Of a DNA stretch of 9,480 nt, positions 1-8,818 are shown piece by piece. Each line of letters opens with the position of its first letter. Positions within the stretch are counted from its first letter, which is position 1. The position numbers and the translations under genes were made by a program. Origin of the DNA: a virus (lineage: Duplodnaviria > Heunggongvirae > Uroviricota > Caudoviricetes); IMG/VR virus record IMGVR_UViG_2671180778_000012, positions 1 through 9,480 of that record, one strand, 5' to 3'. Under the pieces are notes generated by a model. It did not search any database and was not told the origin of the DNA. It saw nothing but the letters and a program-made list of their open reading frames with translations.

Positions 1-717
1 ATGGATGATAACAATATATCGGTCAAACAATATATTATTTATTCGGTTATGAATGATTTAATTACTGGTGGGCGAGAATCTTCAGTTTTAAACGTTCCTG
101 TATCTTTATCCCCGAAAAACTCCACCATAGAGGCTATAAAACGCTTGATTGATGATATAAGAGATTATTTTTATAAATCAAAATATCCAACAAGAGAATT
201 TCTTTTGTGTTATGGTTTAGAATCAAGTGAAATCGAGCAATATCCTATTGAATTAGCTGCAAAAATGGATTCATGTGGTTTTTTAATATTTGATAGTAAA
301 CTATCTTGTCAGGTTGTCGATACTTTAAATTCAGCAGTTGCATTGTACCATGTCGGAATGCGTAATCACGCAGACAAACTTACTAGAGTTGGTGTTGAGT
401 TATTGCTTAATGATTTTTTTGAAGAAATTATATCGAACCATGAAAAAGATAAAAAAATAAAGGATGCTTTATCCTTATCACAGAAAGAAAAAGCGCGCAA
501 ACCAAGAAATCATTATTACAATGAAGTTATGCACGTAATTAAACTAACATGGGAAAAGTACCCTAAAGCCAGTAAAACAGGTTTATTGAACGAGCTTTCT
601 GTTTACTACCATGGGAAAGTAAGTAAAAACACGCTAGATAGATGGATTAAAGAATCAGGGGCACAACCACCAAAGCCTGATAAATACTCTTCGTTTGAGC
701 TTGTTCACCCCCAATAG
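1..717 (+). CDS. Hypothetical AT-rich protein (238 aa) with C-terminal helix-turn-helix-like segment; possible accessory/regulatory cargo
   Basis: Complete ATG..TAG ORF. Strongly AT-rich (first 60 nt about 23% GC) against about 50% GC for the rest of the window. C-terminal segment GLLNELSVYYHGKVSKNTLDRWIK resembles an HTH. No family recognised by eye. Confidence 0.6.
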   Translation: MDDNNISVKQYIIYSVMNDLITGGRESSVLNVPVSLSPKNSTIEAIKRLIDDIRDYFYKSKYPTREFLLCYGLESSEIEQYPIELAAKMDSCGFLIFDSKLSCQVVDTLNSAVALYHVGMRNHADKLTRVGVELLLNDFFEEIISNHEKDKKIKDALSLSQKEKARKPRNHYYNEVMHVIKLTWEKYPKASKTGLLNELSVYYHGKVSKNTLDRWIKESGAQPPKPDKYSSFELVHPQ

Positions 718-798
718 CTGGCTACGGTATTTTAATAGCTGGCTATTGAGGCTAAATAACTGGTAACAGCCCCACAGCAACTGGCTATTGGGCTAAAA
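714..798. repeat. Direct repeat array: CTGGCTA core at 718, 739, 781; 18-bp repeat CTGGCTATTG(A)GGCTAAA(A) at 739-756 and 781-798
   Basis: Read directly. Core copies are offset by 21 and 42 bp, i.e. whole numbers of helical turns. Array lies between the ORF1 stop and the AlpA-like gene. Confidence 0.75.
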
Positions 799-822
799 AC
801 AAAATACTCATTGATTGATATT

Positions 823-856
823 TATCACCGTTGTTACTTAGACGTACACGGTGATA
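823..856. promoter_or_regulatory. Inverted repeat TATCACCG-N18-CGGTGATA overlapping the RBS/start region of the AlpA-like gene; candidate operator
   Basis: Arms at 823-830 and 849-856 are exact reverse complements. Possible -35 TTGATA at 815-820 just upstream. No convincing -10, so promoter assignment is tentative. Confidence 0.4.
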
Positions 857-859
857 GAT

Positions 860-1069
860 ATGAATTTAAAGAAATCTGATTTATCAACTGACCGCCTTAC
901 ACGTGCTGAAGCTGCTGCCTACCTTGGCGTTAACAATCAAACACTGGCGAACTGGGCGTGTACTGGCAAGGTAAAAATCCCTTTCCATAAACTTGGTCGC
1001 AAAGTGCTGTATATGCGCACTGATCTCGATGCTTATCTTGCATCCACTCGCAGAACGCAGACGGTGTAA
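860..1069 (+). CDS. Excisionase-family HTH DNA-binding protein (AlpA/Xis/Vis-like), 69 aa
   Basis: Sequence LTRAEAAAYLGVNNQTLANWACTGKVKIPFHKLGRKVLYMRTDLDAYL fits the excisionase-family (AlpA/Xis-type) DNA-binding domain pattern. ATG at 860 is preferred over the in-frame GTG at 851. GGTGA lies 5 nt upstream of the ATG. Confidence 0.75.
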   Translation: MNLKKSDLSTDRLTRAEAAAYLGVNNQTLANWACTGKVKIPFHKLGRKVLYMRTDLDAYLASTRRTQTV

Positions 1070-2439: not shown

Positions 2440-2739
2440 ATGAGAACATATTTATCTGGCTTGACTGCCAGCGGTTATGCACACCCCCAAATTATCCCCG
2501 GCGCTATTTATCTGGATAAGAACGGTAACAGAGTAACGGTAAAAGAACTGATGTTTGACCGTGTGTATTTTATTCGTGATGGCTATTCATTTCATAGTTC
2601 GCTGAACGTGGAGATCTTTATTAGCAGATTCAGGCGGGAAATCCCGCTTTCCAGAAAAAACCATGTGTCACGTGTGAATGTGGATAAAAAACTACAGGAA
2701 CTGAAAAACATGATTGCCGCGTGGAGAGAGCAGAAATGA
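2440..2739 (+). CDS. Hypothetical protein (99 aa)
   Basis: ATG at 2440 with GGGGA 9 nt upstream. Stop TGA overlaps the primase ATG (ATGA at 2736-2739), suggesting translational coupling. Confidence 0.5.
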   Translation: MRTYLSGLTASGYAHPQIIPGAIYLDKNGNRVTVKELMFDRVYFIRDGYSFHSSLNVEIFISRFRREIPLSRKNHVSRVNVDKKLQELKNMIAAWREQK

Positions 2740-4553
2740 AAAAAGCGCCAAATTTAAAACACCAGCCGCGTGACAAAATGACGGAAGTCATCATTTTTGC
2801 GGGTAGTGATGCGTGGGCACATGCGAAGCAGTGGCAGGAACAGGACGGGCGACTGGCTGGCGATAACGTGCCACCTGTCTGGCTTGGAGAGCAACAACTT
2901 GCCGAACTGGACAACCTGCAAATCGTACCGGACGGACGCTATCGCGTGCGTCTCTATCAGGCGGGGTTATTGCGTCCGGGGCTTGTTAATACCATCGGGC
3001 AGAAACTGGCAGTGGCAGGTGTCAGGGATGCTGATTATTACCCTGAAGGAATGCACAGCCAGAAACGGGAGAACTGGCGCGAATATCTGGAACGTGAACG
3101 GGCAGAGCAGGCGGAAAAGAAAAAGGTAGTTGAACTGCCTGTAAAGAAAAAAGAGCGGGTAAAAGACGATAACGCGTCATCACTGGCGCTTAACCAGATG
3201 GGAGCAAGTCAACGCGGCGAAGTTCTCCTGGCACATTATGGCGGTGAACTGGCGATTCATGCTGACTCTGACACTGTTCACCATTACAACGGCGTTGTAT
3301 GGGAGCCAGTACAGGATAAAGAATTACAGCGAGCTATGGCACAGATTTTCATTGATGCGGAGATCAGCTATTCGCAGAACGCCATTAAATCGGCGGTCGA
3401 TACCATGAAGTTAAGTTTGCCTGTAATGGGGAATACAGCCCGTAACCTGATTGGATTCAGTAACGGGGTATTTGATACCAGAACAGGTAATTTTCGGGAG
3501 CATAACAAAAACGACTGGTTGTTAATTGCCAGTGAATTACCTTTCAGCCCACCAGCAGAGGGGGAAACGCTGGCAACACATGCGCCGAATTTCTGGAAGT
3601 GGTTACGCCGTTCGGTGGCTGAGAATGACCGCAAGGCGGATCGCGTACTGGCTGCATTATTCATGGTGCTGGCGAACCGGTACGACTGGCAGTTATTCAT
3701 TGAGGTAACAGGTCCAGGGGGAAGTGGTAAAAGCGTGATGGCGGAGATTTGCACCATGCTGGCGGGTAAGGCCAACACAGTATCGGCAAGCATGAAGGCG
3801 CTGGAAGATGCAAGGGAACGCGCGTTAGTGGTTGGCTTTTCGCTGATTATCATGCCGGATATGACCCGCTACGCTGGTGATGGGGCAGGGATTAAGGCTA
3901 TTACAGGCGGTGACAAGGTGGCAATTGACCCGAAACACAAAGCCCCCTACTCAACGCGTATTCCGGCAGTAGTGCTGGCGGTTAACAATAACGCCATGTC
4001 ATTCAGTGACCGCAGCGGGGGGATCTCACGTCGTCGGGTGATATTCAATTTTTCGGAAGTTGTACCGGAGAACGAACGTGATCCAATGCTGGCGGAAAAA
4101 ATAGAAGGTGAGCTGGCGGTAGTGATTCGCCATCTGCTTACACGGTTTGCTGACCAGGACGAAGCCAGACGCCTGTTATATGAGCAGCAGAAATCTGAAG
4201 AAGCACTGGCGATAAAGCGAGAGGGGGATTCGCTGGTGGACTTCTGCGGCTATCTCATGGCGTCGGTAATGTGTGATGGCCTGTTAGTGGGTAATGCTGA
4301 AATTGTGCCATTCAGCCCACGCAGGTATCTCTATCATGCCTATCTGGCTTATATGAGGGCACATGGGTTTGGTAAACCTGTAACACTGACGCGCTTCGGT
4401 AAAGATATGCCGGGGGCAATGGCGGAATATGGCAGGGAGTATATGAAACGGAAAACGAAGCACGGTTTGCGTTCAAACGTGACACTGACGGAGGAATCAG
4501 AAGACTGGATGCCATCATGTGTATCGGTCACTAATGACGATAGCAAAAATTAA
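2736..4553 (+). CDS. P4 alpha-type phage/plasmid primase-helicase (D5_N / primase C-terminal region plus SF3 P-loop NTPase)
   Basis: Walker A GPGGSGKS. Motifs NGVFDTRTG and RRRVIFNFSE are typical of the P4-family primase C-terminal / D5 helicase region. ATG at 2736 preferred over GTG at 2721 (GGAGAGAG 5 nt upstream). The N-terminal ~250 aa carry no motif I recognise. Confidence 0.85.
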   Translation: MKKAPNLKHQPRDKMTEVIIFAGSDAWAHAKQWQEQDGRLAGDNVPPVWLGEQQLAELDNLQIVPDGRYRVRLYQAGLLRPGLVNTIGQKLAVAGVRDADYYPEGMHSQKRENWREYLERERAEQAEKKKVVELPVKKKERVKDDNASSLALNQMGASQRGEVLLAHYGGELAIHADSDTVHHYNGVVWEPVQDKELQRAMAQIFIDAEISYSQNAIKSAVDTMKLSLPVMGNTARNLIGFSNGVFDTRTGNFREHNKNDWLLIASELPFSPPAEGETLATHAPNFWKWLRRSVAENDRKADRVLAALFMVLANRYDWQLFIEVTGPGGSGKSVMAEICTMLAGKANTVSASMKALEDARERALVVGFSLIIMPDMTRYAGDGAGIKAITGGDKVAIDPKHKAPYSTRIPAVVLAVNNNAMSFSDRSGGISRRRVIFNFSEVVPENERDPMLAEKIEGELAVVIRHLLTRFADQDEARRLLYEQQKSEEALAIKREGDSLVDFCGYLMASVMCDGLLVGNAEIVPFSPRRYLYHAYLAYMRAHGFGKPVTLTRFGKDMPGAMAEYGREYMKRKTKHGLRSNVTLTEESEDWMPSCVSVTNDDSKN

Positions 4554-4566
4554 ACTTATGGAATAA

Positions 4567-4795
4567 CTGTTCACCACTGTTCACCCTGTCATAAATATCT
4601 TTTATATCAGTATATTATAGGGTGAACAGTTATTTATGAACTGTTCACCAAACTATTCACTGTTCACCTTTTTGATTGTTTATTGAGCTTCAAGGGTGAA
4701 CAGTGGTGAACAGTTGGTGAATAGTTTTTGTGAAACTGTTCACCCCTTAACATTATGAATTAAAAGAGAAAATATCAAAAGGTGAACAGGTGAAG
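4567..4795. repeat. Iteron array, putative replication origin: 9-bp CTGTTCACC / GGTGAACAG in 9 perfect and 2 degenerate copies, flanking AT-rich segments
   Basis: Forward copies at 4567, 4577, 4641, 4660, 4736; reverse copies at 4621, 4695, 4705, 4781; degenerate copies at 4652 and 4716. Tandem pairs are 10 bp apart. AT-rich 4591-4620 is flanked by inverted copies. Array begins 14 bp after the primase stop. Confidence 0.65.
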
Positions 4796-4925: not shown

Positions 4926-4948
4926 AGCCGGAGCAATCCGGCTTTTTT
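4926..4948 (+). terminator. Intrinsic terminator-like hairpin AGCCGGA-GCAA-TCCGGCT followed by a T run
   Basis: 7-bp perfect stem, GNRA-type GCAA loop, T run to 4948. Confidence 0.55.
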
Positions 4949-4950
4949 AT

Positions 4951-5022
4951 GGGTCCTCCCGGTGTAGTGACCTGCCACGGGGCGGGAACGGCGCGGAAAA
5001 AGGCTGGTTTTTGCATTTTCAT
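4951..5022 (+). repeat. Conserved 72-bp non-coding element, copy A (second copy at 7487-7558)
   Basis: Hand alignment to 7487-7558 gives 66 of 72 identical positions. Both copies start 2 nt after a terminator T run. Confidence 0.8.
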
Positions 5023-5209
5023 GGCGGCGGCAGCATGTGTGATAATTTATTGATAATTAAAAGTTATTTCTGTTTTCACCTGTACAATATTTTTTTCTCC
5101 CTGTCATTAGACCAGTTTGCAATTAATTGAAATATATAAATAAATCTGTTTTTCACCTGCCAGGTGGAGTTGCCTGTGTCAAAACGTGTTCAGATGGCGG
5201 GATATTTAT

Positions 5210-5232
5210 GCCGGATTTTCTCCGGCTTTTTT
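5210..5232 (+). terminator. Intrinsic terminator-like hairpin GCCGGA-TTTTC-TCCGGC followed by T6
   Basis: 6-bp stem and T6 read directly. Stem sequence matches the core of the 4926 hairpin. Confidence 0.5.
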
Positions 5233-5334: not shown

Positions 5335-5544
5335 GTGAGTTGTATTAATGACCTGAACACGGGCGATATCAGGGGTGGTTCCGTTCATCTGGATGCGCAG
5401 ACCGTTATGCGCCTTAAGCAGTACAGGATCGACCATATAAATCATCATCCTGACCAACCATTACCAGGTGTGGCGCAGATTGTCAGACATGCCGTAAACA
5501 CCTGGCTTAATCAGAATGGTTTTGCATCGGTGGGGGAACAATGA
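5335..5544 (+). CDS. Small hypothetical protein (69 aa), possibly ribbon-helix-helix-like, translationally coupled to the protease-capsid gene
   Basis: GTG start with AAGAGGAAG 5 nt upstream. Stop overlaps the next ATG (ATGA at 5541-5544). SVHLDAQTVMRLKQY resembles an RHH strand-helix; fold assignment is inference. Confidence 0.5.
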   Translation: MSCINDLNTGDIRGGSVHLDAQTVMRLKQYRIDHINHHPDQPLPGVAQIVRHAVNTWLNQNGFASVGEQ

Positions 5545-7454
5545 ATCGCTGGTACACCATTAAGGCGGCGGATGTTCGCGGAGCGGCGGATATATCTATC
5601 TATGAGGAGATTGGCGGCTTCGGTGTTACTGCAAAGCAGTTCGCGGAAGACCTGAAAGCCCTTGGCGATGTTTCACATATCAATCTGAGGATCCATTCAC
5701 CAGGTGGTGATGTGTTTGAAGGCATCGCCATCTATAACCTGCTACGGAATCATCCGGCAGACATTACGGTTTATATCGATGGTGTTGCGGCTTCAATGGC
5801 TTCGGTGGTCGCAATGGCTGGCGATCGTGTTGTGATGCCGGAAAACGCCATGATGATGATACATAAGCCGTGGGGTATCTCTGGCGGAAATGCTGGTGAT
5901 ATGCGTGATTATGCTGATTTGCTGGATAAGGTGGAAACCGTGTTAGTCCCTGCTTATGCCAGAAAAACGGGCAAATCAGCACAGGAAATTACCGCCATGC
6001 TGGAAGATGAAACCTGGATGGACGGGAAAGAATGCCTTAAGCACGGTTTTGCTGATGAATTGTTGCCATCCGTCAGAGCAATGGCGCGAATTGAATCGAA
6101 GCGCACAGGAGATTTTTTACATATGCCGGAAACCATTAAAGGAATGATTACACCGCCACAGGGAGCGGCAAATATTGCTGGTAATGAACAGAAACGCATC
6201 AATGGAATAAGTGAAGTGTTTAGCCTGTTCGGCAGTCGTTACGACGGGATCAAAATGGCGTGTCTGGAAGATGCATCATGTACACCGGAAATGGCCCGTG
6301 AAAAGCTGTTGAACGAGCTGGGGCGCGAGTCCACGCCATCCAATAAAAATACCCCGCCTCATATCTATGCCGGAAACGGAAACATAACAGGTGATGCAAT
6401 TCGTCAGGGGCTTTATTCCCGTCTTGGGTATGAACGGCCTGAACGAGGCAACCCTTACGCGATGATGAGTCTTTTTGAAATGGCCCAGGCATCACTGGTT
6501 GATCGTGGTATCACTGTGAGCGGTTTTATTAATCGCTCGCAGGTTGTTAATGCGGCTTTTACACACAGCAGCAGTGATTTTTCTCATATTCTGGCTGGTG
6601 GGGCTGAAAAATCTGTACTGAAAGGCTGGCAGGACAGCGGCGAAACGTTCCAGAAATGGACGCGTACCGGTTCGCTTTCAAACTTTCATGAAGCAAAGCG
6701 CGTTGGTCTGAATGGTTTTTCAAAGCTGGATAAAGTACCGGAAGGTGCGGAATATAAATACATCACCACCAGCGATAAAGGTGTACCTATTGCGCTGGCC
6801 ACGTACGGGAATATATTTTCCGTTACCCGTCAGGCCATTATCAACGATGACCTGACCCAGTTAACTACAATCCCCATGGCGATGGGACGCGCAGCTGCCA
6901 GAACAGTTGGCAATCTGGTTTATCTCCTGTTAACCAGCAACGGCAAGTTTACGGATGGTAAAGCGTTATTCCATGCCGATCATAAAAATCTTATTGCGAA
7001 GGATATGGACATGGAGGGGCTTAACGAAGCCCGTAAGCTGATGCGCCTCCAGGAAGACGCTAACGGCGATTCGCTGAATATTACCCCTGCATTTGTCCTG
7101 GTCCCCGCCGCGCTGGAGTCTGCCGCACATCGCGCCATTCTGTCATCGTCATCACTCTTTCCGGTTGATGGCGTGGGCACTATCAATCAGAACCCCGGCA
7201 TCATTAACGTGGTGAAAGATATGGCGGAGGTAATCGTTGAGCCACGTCTTGATAAAGCCAATAACAAGGAGTGGTATGTGGCAGCGGCGAAGGGTATGGA
7301 CACGATAGAGGTCGCTTATCTTGATGGTATTGATACGCCATATCTTGAGGAGCAGGAGGGCTTTACTGTTGATGGCGTCGCCTGGAAGGTGCGCATAGAT
7401 GCAGGTGTCGCGGCCCTCGACTATCGCGGATTACTGAAATCGAGTGGAGCATGA
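5541..7454 (+). CDS. ClpP-like (S14) prohead maturation protease fused to HK97-fold major capsid protein (637 aa)
   Basis: N-terminal ~190 aa has ClpP-type motifs (GVAASMASVVAMAG with active-site Ser context; MIHKPWG with His). C-terminal ~400 aa has the length and composition of an HK97/Mu gpT-like major head protein. GGGGGA 3 nt upstream of the ATG. Confidence 0.8.
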   Translation: MNRWYTIKAADVRGAADISIYEEIGGFGVTAKQFAEDLKALGDVSHINLRIHSPGGDVFEGIAIYNLLRNHPADITVYIDGVAASMASVVAMAGDRVVMPENAMMMIHKPWGISGGNAGDMRDYADLLDKVETVLVPAYARKTGKSAQEITAMLEDETWMDGKECLKHGFADELLPSVRAMARIESKRTGDFLHMPETIKGMITPPQGAANIAGNEQKRINGISEVFSLFGSRYDGIKMACLEDASCTPEMAREKLLNELGRESTPSNKNTPPHIYAGNGNITGDAIRQGLYSRLGYERPERGNPYAMMSLFEMAQASLVDRGITVSGFINRSQVVNAAFTHSSSDFSHILAGGAEKSVLKGWQDSGETFQKWTRTGSLSNFHEAKRVGLNGFSKLDKVPEGAEYKYITTSDKGVPIALATYGNIFSVTRQAIINDDLTQLTTIPMAMGRAAARTVGNLVYLLLTSNGKFTDGKALFHADHKNLIAKDMDMEGLNEARKLMRLQEDANGDSLNITPAFVLVPAALESAAHRAILSSSSLFPVDGVGTINQNPGIINVVKDMAEVIVEPRLDKANNKEWYVAAAKGMDTIEVAYLDGIDTPYLEEQEGFTVDGVAWKVRIDAGVAALDYRGLLKSSGA

Positions 7455-7461
7455 CAACAAG

Positions 7462-7484
7462 GGCGGCGATAGCCGCCTTTTTTT
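7462..7484 (+). terminator. Intrinsic terminator GGCGGC-GATA-GCCGCC followed by T7, 8 nt after the capsid stop
   Basis: Perfect 6-bp GC stem, 4-nt loop, seven T. Confidence 0.7.
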
Positions 7485-7486
7485 AC

Positions 7487-7558
7487 GGGTCCTCCCGGTG
7501 GGGTGGTCTGCCACGGGGCGGGAGCGGCGCGGAAAAAGGCTAGTTTTTGCATTTTCAT
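7487..7558 (+). repeat. Conserved 72-bp non-coding element, copy B
   Basis: 66 of 72 identity with 4951-5022. Lies 154 bp upstream of the Nu1-like gene. Confidence 0.8.
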
Positions 7559-7711
7559 TCGTCATCATCATCTTTCTATGATATTGAATTTTAAGTGTTT
7601 TTATTTTTGGTATGTTAATTTTGCTTGTTTTATGCTCAACATATAGCGCATTTTTTGACCTCTTCTGAAAGTTGTTCGCAAGATGCATGTTTAAAACATT
7701 CTGGAGCGGGT

Positions 7712-8197
7712 ATGGATCGAGAACTGAAAAATCTGATGCTGAACATTAATCAACTGGCGGCGATAGCGGGAATATGTCGTCAGACTGCGGCGGCAAGGCT
7801 GAAAAACATCCAGCCAGCCGGAGGGCATGACAAGCTAAAACTCTATCGGGTGACTGACATTCTGACCTGTTTTCTTGATCTTCCCGTTCCGGCATCACTG
7901 GAAGAAATGGAGCCACATGACCGTAAGGCCTGGTATCAGTCCGAACGTGAGCGCCTCAAGTTCGAACAGGAAACGGCGCAACTCATACCCGCCGATGATG
8001 TGCGAAAAGAGATGGCTATATGGGGGGAAATCGTAAGCGAGGAACTGGCAAAACTCCCCAATATTCTGGCACGTGATGCCGGGCTTAAACCGATGGCAGT
8101 AAACAGAGTGCAGTCAATTATTGACGATTTGCGTAATCAGATTATCAGCCGGATGGTAAAAAATGACGTAGTGAATGAGGTCGCAAAACAGGCATGA
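7712..8197 (+). CDS. Lambda Nu1-like small terminase subunit homologue (TerS / packaging-redirection type), 161 aa
   Basis: N-terminal HTH INQLAAIAGICRQTAAARLKN parallels lambda Nu1 KKQLADIFGASIRTIQNW, recalled from memory. ATG at 7712 with GGAG 5 nt upstream. The upstream TTG at 7625 is unlikely to be the start. Confidence 0.7.
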   Translation: MDRELKNLMLNINQLAAIAGICRQTAAARLKNIQPAGGHDKLKLYRVTDILTCFLDLPVPASLEEMEPHDRKAWYQSERERLKFEQETAQLIPADDVRKEMAIWGEIVSEELAKLPNILARDAGLKPMAVNRVQSIIDDLRNQIISRMVKNDVVNEVAKQA

Positions 8198-8481: not shown

Positions 8482-8818
8482 ATTCCTGATATTCAGGAAA
8501 ACCACGAATCTGTGGGGTTTACTGGCGCGGTTACGGCGGTGACACGCACCGAGGCAGAACAATTACCGTAGGTTAAAGCGACAGTATTCACACCAAAGGC
8601 AGAAATTAGCGGTTAACGTAACTGACTGATATTTTCGGGAACAGCCAACGGCTGAGGCCGGAGCTATAAAAATAGCTTTGGGTACAGTCCTCAGTTTTGA
8701 GGGATGTTAACCAACTGAATAATAAGCAAACCTCAAAATTGAGTTTTGTATCTGCCTGAGTTATTTCTGTGCTAACTTGCTGATATTCCCGATAGCGCAA
8801 AAGTGCGTTGGCTGGTGG

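Follow-up and report, generated by a model that had tools for sequence, protein, structure and literature searches.

Two probable lambda-type cos sites with cosB flanks of two helper classes in a PICI-type satellite of Escherichia coli

The two copies of a 72-bp element in the stretch of DNA analysed here (9,480 nucleotides, hereafter the window) are very probably the cores of two lambda-type cos sites of a PICI-type satellite, in which the cores would be read by TerL and the dissimilar flanks would be TerS-specific cosB sequences. The satellite is of the E. coli PICI type and about 10.4 kb long, and the window covers most of it. An earlier note made from the sequence alone had taken the element for a selected cis-acting module tied to helper phages, with a packaging signal as one example, and both proposals are borne out, the element aligning with the cos of lambda and spanning the genome ends of phages cdtI and Tritos. 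As a whole, the interpretation given there is partly supported, as detailed below.

Direct comparison of the two copies, A and B, bears out a match at 66 of 72 positions, for which about 5e-20 occurrences would be expected by chance over all position pairs. If the preceding T run is included, the repeat finder extends the pair to 80 nt (4943-5022 and 7479-7558; 73/80, 91%), and no other repeat in the window is nearly as long. The terminator that had been described ahead of each copy is likewise confirmed by strong, G+C-rich hairpins and T runs at both places, with a gap of 2 bases between T run and element (AT at copy A, AC at copy B). The predicted folding energies of the hairpins are -15.4 kcal/mol at 4927-4942 (z = -6.0) and -16.2 kcal/mol at 7462-7477 (z = -4.6). 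The former hairpin ends the transcription unit on the primase and origin side and delimits the cos A cassette on the left; on the right the cassette is delimited by a second hairpin with the same stem (5210-5226). The loop is GCAA in the first and TTTTC in the second of these hairpins and GAAA in the related island L093 and in CFT073; that of the second hairpin is the near reverse complement of the loop found at this position in related islands. The junction of hairpin, T run, AT and GGGTCCT at copy A also occurs at the plus-strand cos of EcCICFT073, and the hairpin seems to be a recombination site for cos cassettes.

Table 1. Coordinates of the two cos sites and of neighbouring features in the window
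Feature	Position	Strand	Remarks
HTH regulator, AlpA-like	851-1069		
DUF4222 gene			listed between regulator and primase
D5-type primase-helicase gene	2721-4553	+	
Iteron-rich origin	4552-4790	+	CTGTTCACC repeats
Minus-strand ORF over copy A	5022-4819	-	ATG start at 5022, 67 aa
Hairpin GCCGGA-GCAA-TCCGGC + T6	4927-4948	+	stem 4927-4932/4937-4942, T run 4943-4948
cos A core	4951-5022	+	cosQ GGGTCCT 4951-4957; putative overhang GGGCGGGAACGG 4980-4991; conserved right arm CGCGGAAAAAGGCTGGTTTTTGCATTTTCAT
cosB of cos A, cdtI/Tritos type	5023-5163	+	
Remnant of cdtI-type terS start	5164-5183	+	GTGGAGTTGCCTGTGTCAAA, in phage ATGGAGTTGCTTATGTCAAA; phage homology ends here
Second copy of hairpin (GCCGGATTTTCTCCGGC) + T run	5210-5232 (hairpin 5210-5226)	+	right border of cos A cassette
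69-aa gene and ClpP-like prohead protease/major capsid fusion	5335-7454	+	between the two cos sites
Minus-strand ORF over copy B	7558-7421	-	ATG start at 7558, 45 aa
Hairpin GGCGGC-GATA-GCCGCC + T7	7462-7484	+	after capsid gene; stem 7462-7467/7472-7477, T run 7478-7484
cos B core	7487-7558	+	cosQ 7487-7493; putative overhang GGGCGGGAGCGG 7516-7527
cosB of cos B, mEp460 type	7559-7711	+	begins TCGTCATCATCATC
TerS homologue, DUF1441	7712-8197	+	161 aa, island-encoded
Gene of 95-aa protein			listed after DUF1441 gene

In both copies, cosQ GGGTCCT is followed by 22 bases, the left nick site, a 12-nt overhang and CGCGG, and the lambda junction (...ACGGGTCCTTTCCGGTGATCCGACAGGTTACG/GGGCGGCGACCT/CGCGGG..., with slashes for the nicks and the part to the right of the overhang GGGCGGCGACCT reading CGCGGGTTTTCGC) aligns with both of them base for base, the distance from cosQ to the nick being 29 nt in both copies and 30 nt in lambda. 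A search of phage genomes with the repeat matched only lambdoid coliphages, and in three linear phage records the match starts at base 1. The cdtI and Tritos records end in ...GGGTCCT(T/C)CCGGTGGGG...CTGCCACG (...CCACG) and start with GGGCGGGAGCGTCGCGGAAAAAGGCT... (GGGCGGGAGCGTCGCGGAAAAAGGCTAGTTTTT...) at the G that matches window positions 4980 and 7516, their ends following the same convention as those of lambda. A cosQ at a fixed distance and cosN half-sites at which phage genomes have their ends, as in a lambda-type cos, are thus both found. The nick positions and the 12-nt length of the overhang were placed by homology with lambda and these two deposited records, as has also been done for mEp213 and LLS (PMC12315714); the mEp460_4F5 record was not used for this purpose because its first base lies 5 nt before the expected end and 3 nt are missing, so that it looks trimmed. 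In related phages a DUF1441 terS comes immediately after the element, followed by terL, adaptor and portal. Since every match of the repeat lies in a lambdoid phage or prophage or in a related satellite, it is not the dispersed intergenic repeat unrelated to phages that the earlier note had named as a refuting outcome.

An alignment of 34 sites was made from lambda, CFT073 (two sites), four phages, copies A and B of the window and 25 loci in prophages or islands of Enterobacterales and relatives. Across this alignment cosQ reads (G/A)GGT(C/A)CT, and conservation is found in cosQ, CCACGGGGCGG, CGCGG and AAACGGCTAGTTTT as well as in the half-sites flanking the nicks (CCACG/GGGCGG.../CGCGG), with variation in the middle of the overhang. 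Of the 31 columns conserved at 90% or more among the 32 other cos sites, 30 are retained in each window copy, and all six differences between the copies fall in columns that also vary among those 32 sites. This pattern of conservation is the one expected of a terminase substrate, not of an RNA. The core of cos B differs at only three positions from those of phages 569R4 and PhiR40_1. At the final position of the overhang (4991 and 7527), both copies have G, as opposed to T in 29 of the 32 other cos sites, a substitution that could weaken nicking.

The similarity between the two copies stops at 5022 and 7558, presumably because the TerS-specific cosB begins there, and in a global alignment the flank of cos A is 54% identical to that of cos B, which is background level. 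The roughly 160 bp at 5023-5183 match bases 44-204 of Tritos, cdtI and HannyBb at 94% identity, a stretch that covers the whole cosB through the first terS codons, and the truncated terS leaves an ORF of 28 aa. This flank contains the only IHF-consensus match in the window (5043-5055, minus strand) and, according to k-mer counts, two repeats TCTGTTTT(T)CACCTG of 14-15 nt (5069-5082 and 5145-5159, 76 bp apart) that occur at cos A only and are candidate TerS-binding sites; together, IHF match and repeat pair recall the layout of the lambda cosB. The repeat finder run on both cosB flanks returned no direct repeats, and none is clear in the flank of cos B. The latter flank (7559-7720) is 71-77% identical to the interval between cos and terS in the mEp460-type phages 569R4, phi458, mEp460_4F5 and PhiR40_1. 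The island TerS homologue likewise groups with the mEp460 type, being 64-68% identical over its full length to mEp460-type TerS and 31% identical to the cdtI type. The TerS proteins of the cdtI and mEp460 types are themselves 31% identical, as opposed to 88% for the TerL proteins of cdtI and mEp460_4F5, and the cores may be alike in both copies because the two helper groups have nearly the same TerL and hence the same cosQ and cosN. The view of the element as a duplication thus holds for the core common to both copies, but not for the flanks, which come from two different phage cos types, so that there is no plain internal duplication.

Two further observations concern the TerS-specific parts. 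To the right of the 72-mer, many prophage cos sites in the 34-site alignment continue with GTCATCATCATCATGTG and others with GCTGTCAGCAGCAGGTG or GGCGGCGGCAGCATGTG, a triplet-periodic element that begins exactly at the end of the window repeat and may be the first TerS-specific determinant. The island TerS diverges from phage TerS at residues ~105-130, where the otherwise distant cdtI- and mEp460-type proteins are nearly identical (KAVVQVLETxPDxLERDC), and it lacks the acidic C-terminal tail (DDEEELQQEE) of both phage types; this divergence may reflect an altered interaction with TerL or with the helper TerS.

The surroundings of the two sites are those of a Gram-negative PICI. A 97%-identical island in strain Ecol_224 (NZ_CP018948) lies between rcnR and thiM, has an integrase at its left end and is framed by direct (att) repeats of 25 nt at a distance of 10,377 bp; the layout of the window island and of this relative is the one described for Gram-negative PICIs (PMC6092414), with the unidirectional int/regulator/primase/ori backbone of the cos type (int in the Ecol_224 relative), a size in the usual range of about 10-15 kb, and neither tail nor lysis genes. 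Window positions 1-1065, 8494-8772 and those beyond 9096 do not match the Ecol_224 island, and the ORF at the left end (1-717) has no Pfam or PHROG match; the window island probably differs from that island in accessory region and integration site. The origin comprises at least nine CTGTTCACC copies in both orientations and long imperfect inverted repeats, from which a spurious sub-threshold Rfam match to the miRNA family MIR1508 (4638-4727) arises, the only one in the window at E<=1. From the origin to the end of the island only the capsid fusion, the TerS homologue and small ORFs are encoded, and since terL and portal are missing the island is not a capsid-forming PICI (cf-PICI). The fusion is recognised by Pfam Phage_capsid_4 (1.6e-53) and CLP_protease (2e-35), the region of the 69-aa gene and the fusion by PHROG 133 and 4934, and the TerS homologue by Pfam DUF1441 (2.9e-36) and PHROG 141 'terminase small subunit' (1.5e-57). 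The statement that each copy precedes a morphogenesis or packaging gene is right for copy B, which lies ahead of the TerS-homologue gene; in the case of copy A the 69-aa gene and the protease-capsid fusion do follow, but only after an interval of about 310 bp with other sequence.

Taken together, the 72 bp would comprise the part of cos that is read by TerL, that is, cosQ for termination, cosN, which would be nicked to leave a 12-nt 5' overhang, and the adjoining arm. As cos A comes with a cdtI/Tritos cosB but no terS, recognition would depend on the TerS of a cdtI/Tritos-type helper, and at cos B the island TerS homologue or the TerS of an mEp460-type helper would recruit the helper TerL. After induction and replication, the terminase would cut island concatemers at the cos sites for packaging into helper-derived particles, and with ~10.4 kb per unit about four units would fill a head of 42-47 kb. 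What we show directly is the homology, the location of the phage genome ends, the two kinds of flank and the patterns in populations; the exact nick positions, the pairing of proteins and sites, and the use of both sites are what we infer from sequence. We give an even chance to the further proposal that the two cos sites widen the helper range, with helpers of the cdtI type and of the mEp460 type packaging one and the same island. Counted against the main reading, that of both copies as cos sites, are the G at the last overhang position, the absence of cos A from some islands and from relatives in other genera (see below), the increased transfer of EcCICFT073 upon deletion of cos2 (PMC6092414), and the fact that the cosB of cos B is only 71-77% identical to known phage cosB.

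Other functions of the 72-mer have to be weighed against this reading. An element acting at the level of RNA, e.g., in antitermination, processing or as a small RNA, would fit the position directly after terminators and upstream of late-type genes, and minus-strand transcription into the bidirectional hairpin is possible in principle. However, scanning the entire window against Rfam at E<=1 found no family over the element, the folds of both strands of both copies are not better than those of shuffled sequences (z = -0.4, -1.0, +0.8 and -1.0), and copies A and B are predicted to fold into different structures. In addition, the variation in the 34 homologues tracks cosQ and cosN rather than paired columns, none of the six differences in the covariation check that the earlier note had proposed being compensatory, and in phages the element spans the physical genome ends. 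The antitermination or RNA-processing element suggested there thus finds no support, and an RNA function is extremely unlikely. The same absence of Rfam matches and of stable folds, and the restriction of the A/B differences to variable columns, also speak against the helper-responsive late-activator site that had been offered as another example. A binding site for such an activator, or a promoter for the downstream morphogenesis genes, could be suspected from the position of both copies upstream of capsid and terminase genes and from their AT-rich flanks. However, no sigma-70-like site was called in or beside either copy, the homologue in lambda and its relatives is cos, with late transcription starting far upstream, and the terminator at 5210-5232 separates copy A from the next genes, so that we regard this possibility as very improbable. 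Finally, the repeat could encode a small protein on the minus strand (MKMQKPAFFRA..., starting at 5022 and 7558), since ATG-initiated ORFs of 67 and 45 aa exist and some phage records annotate a 'hypothetical protein' over the element. These annotations are, however, on different strands in different records, the two ORFs differ in length and diverge completely outside the repeat, and conservation tracks DNA motifs common with lambda, where no such ORF exists. As they are not conserved beyond the repeat, the ORFs were rejected and a coding function is hardly credible; it is in this sense only that the earlier designation of the copies as non-coding holds.

With respect to the origin of the two cos sites, relatives of the island from the genera Trabulsiella, Yersinia, Buttiauxella, Phytobacter, Kluyvera and Rahnella contain a single cos just 3' of the capsid fusion, in the position of cos B, and no cos at the position of cos A. 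Islands of the same lineage without cos A exist as well (L093, L100, L122, L123 and L130); in L093 (NZ_OY754377), a single hairpin, GCCGGAGAAATCCGGC-TTTTTTTGTGTCTGA, is followed by TTTTTTGTGTCTGA, whereas in the window the cos A cassette with a hairpin on either side precedes TTTTTTGTGTCTGA. Because cos A is missing from L093 and from the relatives in the six other genera, cos B is taken to be the ancestral site and cos A a cassette of about 260 bp that was inserted at the terminator. Its absence from some same-lineage islands and from the relatives in other genera also means that natural islands can do without cos A. L093 carries fragments of phage tail genes between its capsid gene and cos B (9266-9966; a tail protein pseudogene and a tail assembly protein).

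Among 5426 complete E. coli genomes, 195 contain the capsid-cos B module, and 155 (of the ~195 islands) contain cos A joined to the island capsid module. The latter number was obtained with a junction query, a 2.85-kb query for genomes with both cos sites having been dropped since it also passes 80% coverage in islands that lack cos A. The 233-bp cdtI-type cos adjoining a DUF1441 gene was found in about 750 of the 5426 genomes; these loci are presumably prophages and possible helpers.

The cores of the two sites have in part been homogenised by gene conversion. In the island L116 both copies carry a private variant, GGTGGAGTGG, and differ at 1 of 72 positions, and the right arm of the cos A hairpin is also B-like. 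Whether the overhang ends in G or in T co-varies between the two copies in five of seven islands, which suggests gene conversion or a selection for matching ends. Two loci, L113 (IMGVR_UViG_2654587792_000035, 6340-7054) and L170 (6392), have a single hybrid cos and no capsid gene; with the left side and hairpin of cos A and the right side of cos B, these hybrids look like deletions by recombination between direct cos repeats.

In a survey of 80 IMG/VR loci with the island's primase, which used a cos profile built from three sequences of this cos type and may thus miss lambda-type cos in primase-sharing islands, a second lineage was found in which the capsid fusion is 62% identical and the capsid gene is again flanked by two cos sites. 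Its sites have a common cosN variant, GGGCGG(G/A)(C/G)GG..., and distinct flanks, of which A' begins with GGCACCATCACCACCAC and B' with CGTCATCATCATCATGTG. Several of these islands are inserted in a prophage terL, in the order helper cos and terS, 5' half of terL, island, 3' half of terL, portal and capsid. The helper cos is of the A' type in L165 and of the B' type in L175, and at either locus both types are present in the embedded island; flank identity is 64% between A' and the A'-type helper and 74% between B' and the B'-type helper, as compared to 52-55% at background level. Such a pattern supports, but does not prove, the idea that the two sites may serve two helper classes. Close relatives of the window island (L105, L112, L154, L145, L146, L165 and L175), whose primase is 87-99% identical, lie inside lambdoid prophage terL at about codon 330-350 and represent helper-embedded satellites of the kind described before (bioRxiv 10.1101/2022.07.18.500453). 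Two short 'phage' records considered as possible packaged islands were rejected, ON470578 (16 kb) being a partial phage genome and LR881103 (16.5 kb) a cf-PICI of another family. LR881103.1 (L097) has been deposited as an induced 'phage', vB_KppS-Ant; it has the gene set of a cf-PICI and a primase 78% identical at the DNA level to that of the window.

Among the closest known systems is the E. coli PICI EcCICFT073 (Fillol-Salom et al. 2018, 2019), which carries two cos sites, both functional, with cosQ and cosN like those of phages and a different cosB; both sites allow plasmid transfer by lambda and phi80, deletion of both abolishes transfer of the island, and cos1 is recognised by a complex of the helper TerS and the island protein RppA (PMC6092414, PMC6739421). 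Deletion of cos2 increased transfer (PMC6092414), and a second cos is therefore not necessarily beneficial with every helper. EcCICFT073 resembles the window island in the int-regulator-primase-ori backbone, the two cos sites with divergent cosB and a capsid-protein homologue nearby. However, its cos sites are inverted and flank rppA, whereas those of the window are direct repeats flanking the capsid gene, and its overhang is that of lambda, GGGCGGCGACCT, as compared to GGGCGGGA(A/G)CGG in the window. According to the published descriptions (PMC6092414, PMC6739421) it has no recognisable phage cosB, whereas each cosB of the window matches a phage group. Its specificity is conferred by Rpp bound to the helper TerS, whereas the window island lacks an Rpp homologue and has a full-length TerS homologue: a comparison of CFT073 RppA with the latter revealed no similarity (E 9), tblastn of RppA on the window gave only a stretch of 30 aa with 27% identity inside the primase gene (E 0.009), which was taken as chance, and neither the TerS homologue nor the 95-aa protein gave a match to Rpp or RppC when searched against PDB sequences.

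Compared to lambda, the cosQ heptamer is identical, the half-sites ACG/GGGCGG and /CGCGG are common, cosB and terS lie to the right, and an IHF-consensus site is also present in the cosB of cos A; in contrast, the centre of the overhang and the whole cosB differ, TerS belongs to the Nu1 type in lambda and to DUF1441 in the window, and the window cosQ is one base nearer to the nick. The phages cdtI, Tritos, mEp460 and mEp213/LLS (PMC12315714) have fused protease-capsid heads and TerS families as in the window. These fused-head lambdoid phages have one cos followed by terS, terL and portal, whereas the island has two, each after a terminator, and no terL. Capture of a helper cos has been reported for the embedded satellites 11capE and 50icd (bioRxiv 10.1101/2022.07.18.500453), where a cos cassette of ~250 bp is common to satellite and helper at ~90% identity, as is the case with cos A of the window, and two putative cos sites have been reported for SaPIbov4, as cited in PMC6092414. 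Neither the 11capE/50icd report nor the account of SaPIbov4, as far as it is rendered in that citation, describes one satellite with two cassettes that differ in cosB type.

An alternative hypothesis assumes that cos A is a non-functional scar, left when some 260 bp of a cdtI-type prophage recombined at the hairpin, and that only cos B is used for packaging. In favour of this scenario are the lack of cos A in some islands of the lineage and in the other genera, the insertion-like arrangement with two copies of one hairpin on either side, the truncated terS start, and the increased transfer of EcCICFT073 upon loss of cos2 (PMC6092414). However, the captured piece extends exactly from cosQ to the terS start codon and thus coincides with the functional cos unit, all conserved cosQ and cosN columns but one have been kept, and cos A is present in ~155 of the ~195 E. 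coli islands of this type. In addition, the design with two cos sites and two cosB types recurs in the second lineage, and both cos sites of EcCICFT073 support plasmid transfer (PMC6092414). We therefore consider it unlikely that cos A is a mere scar, and favour the reading of both copies as cos sites.

Two cos sites in a Gram-negative PICI have been published before, and apart from one point the present finding is an ordinary one, a packaging signal of a known kind; what it adds is that the sites carry the cosB of two helper TerS classes. Since cos sites decide which helpers spread a satellite together with any cargo, two helpers for one satellite would be a concrete and testable explanation for the presence of two cos sites. 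With this island type in about 3% and prophages with a cdtI-type cos in about 14% of complete E. coli genomes, such an interaction may be expected to be common.
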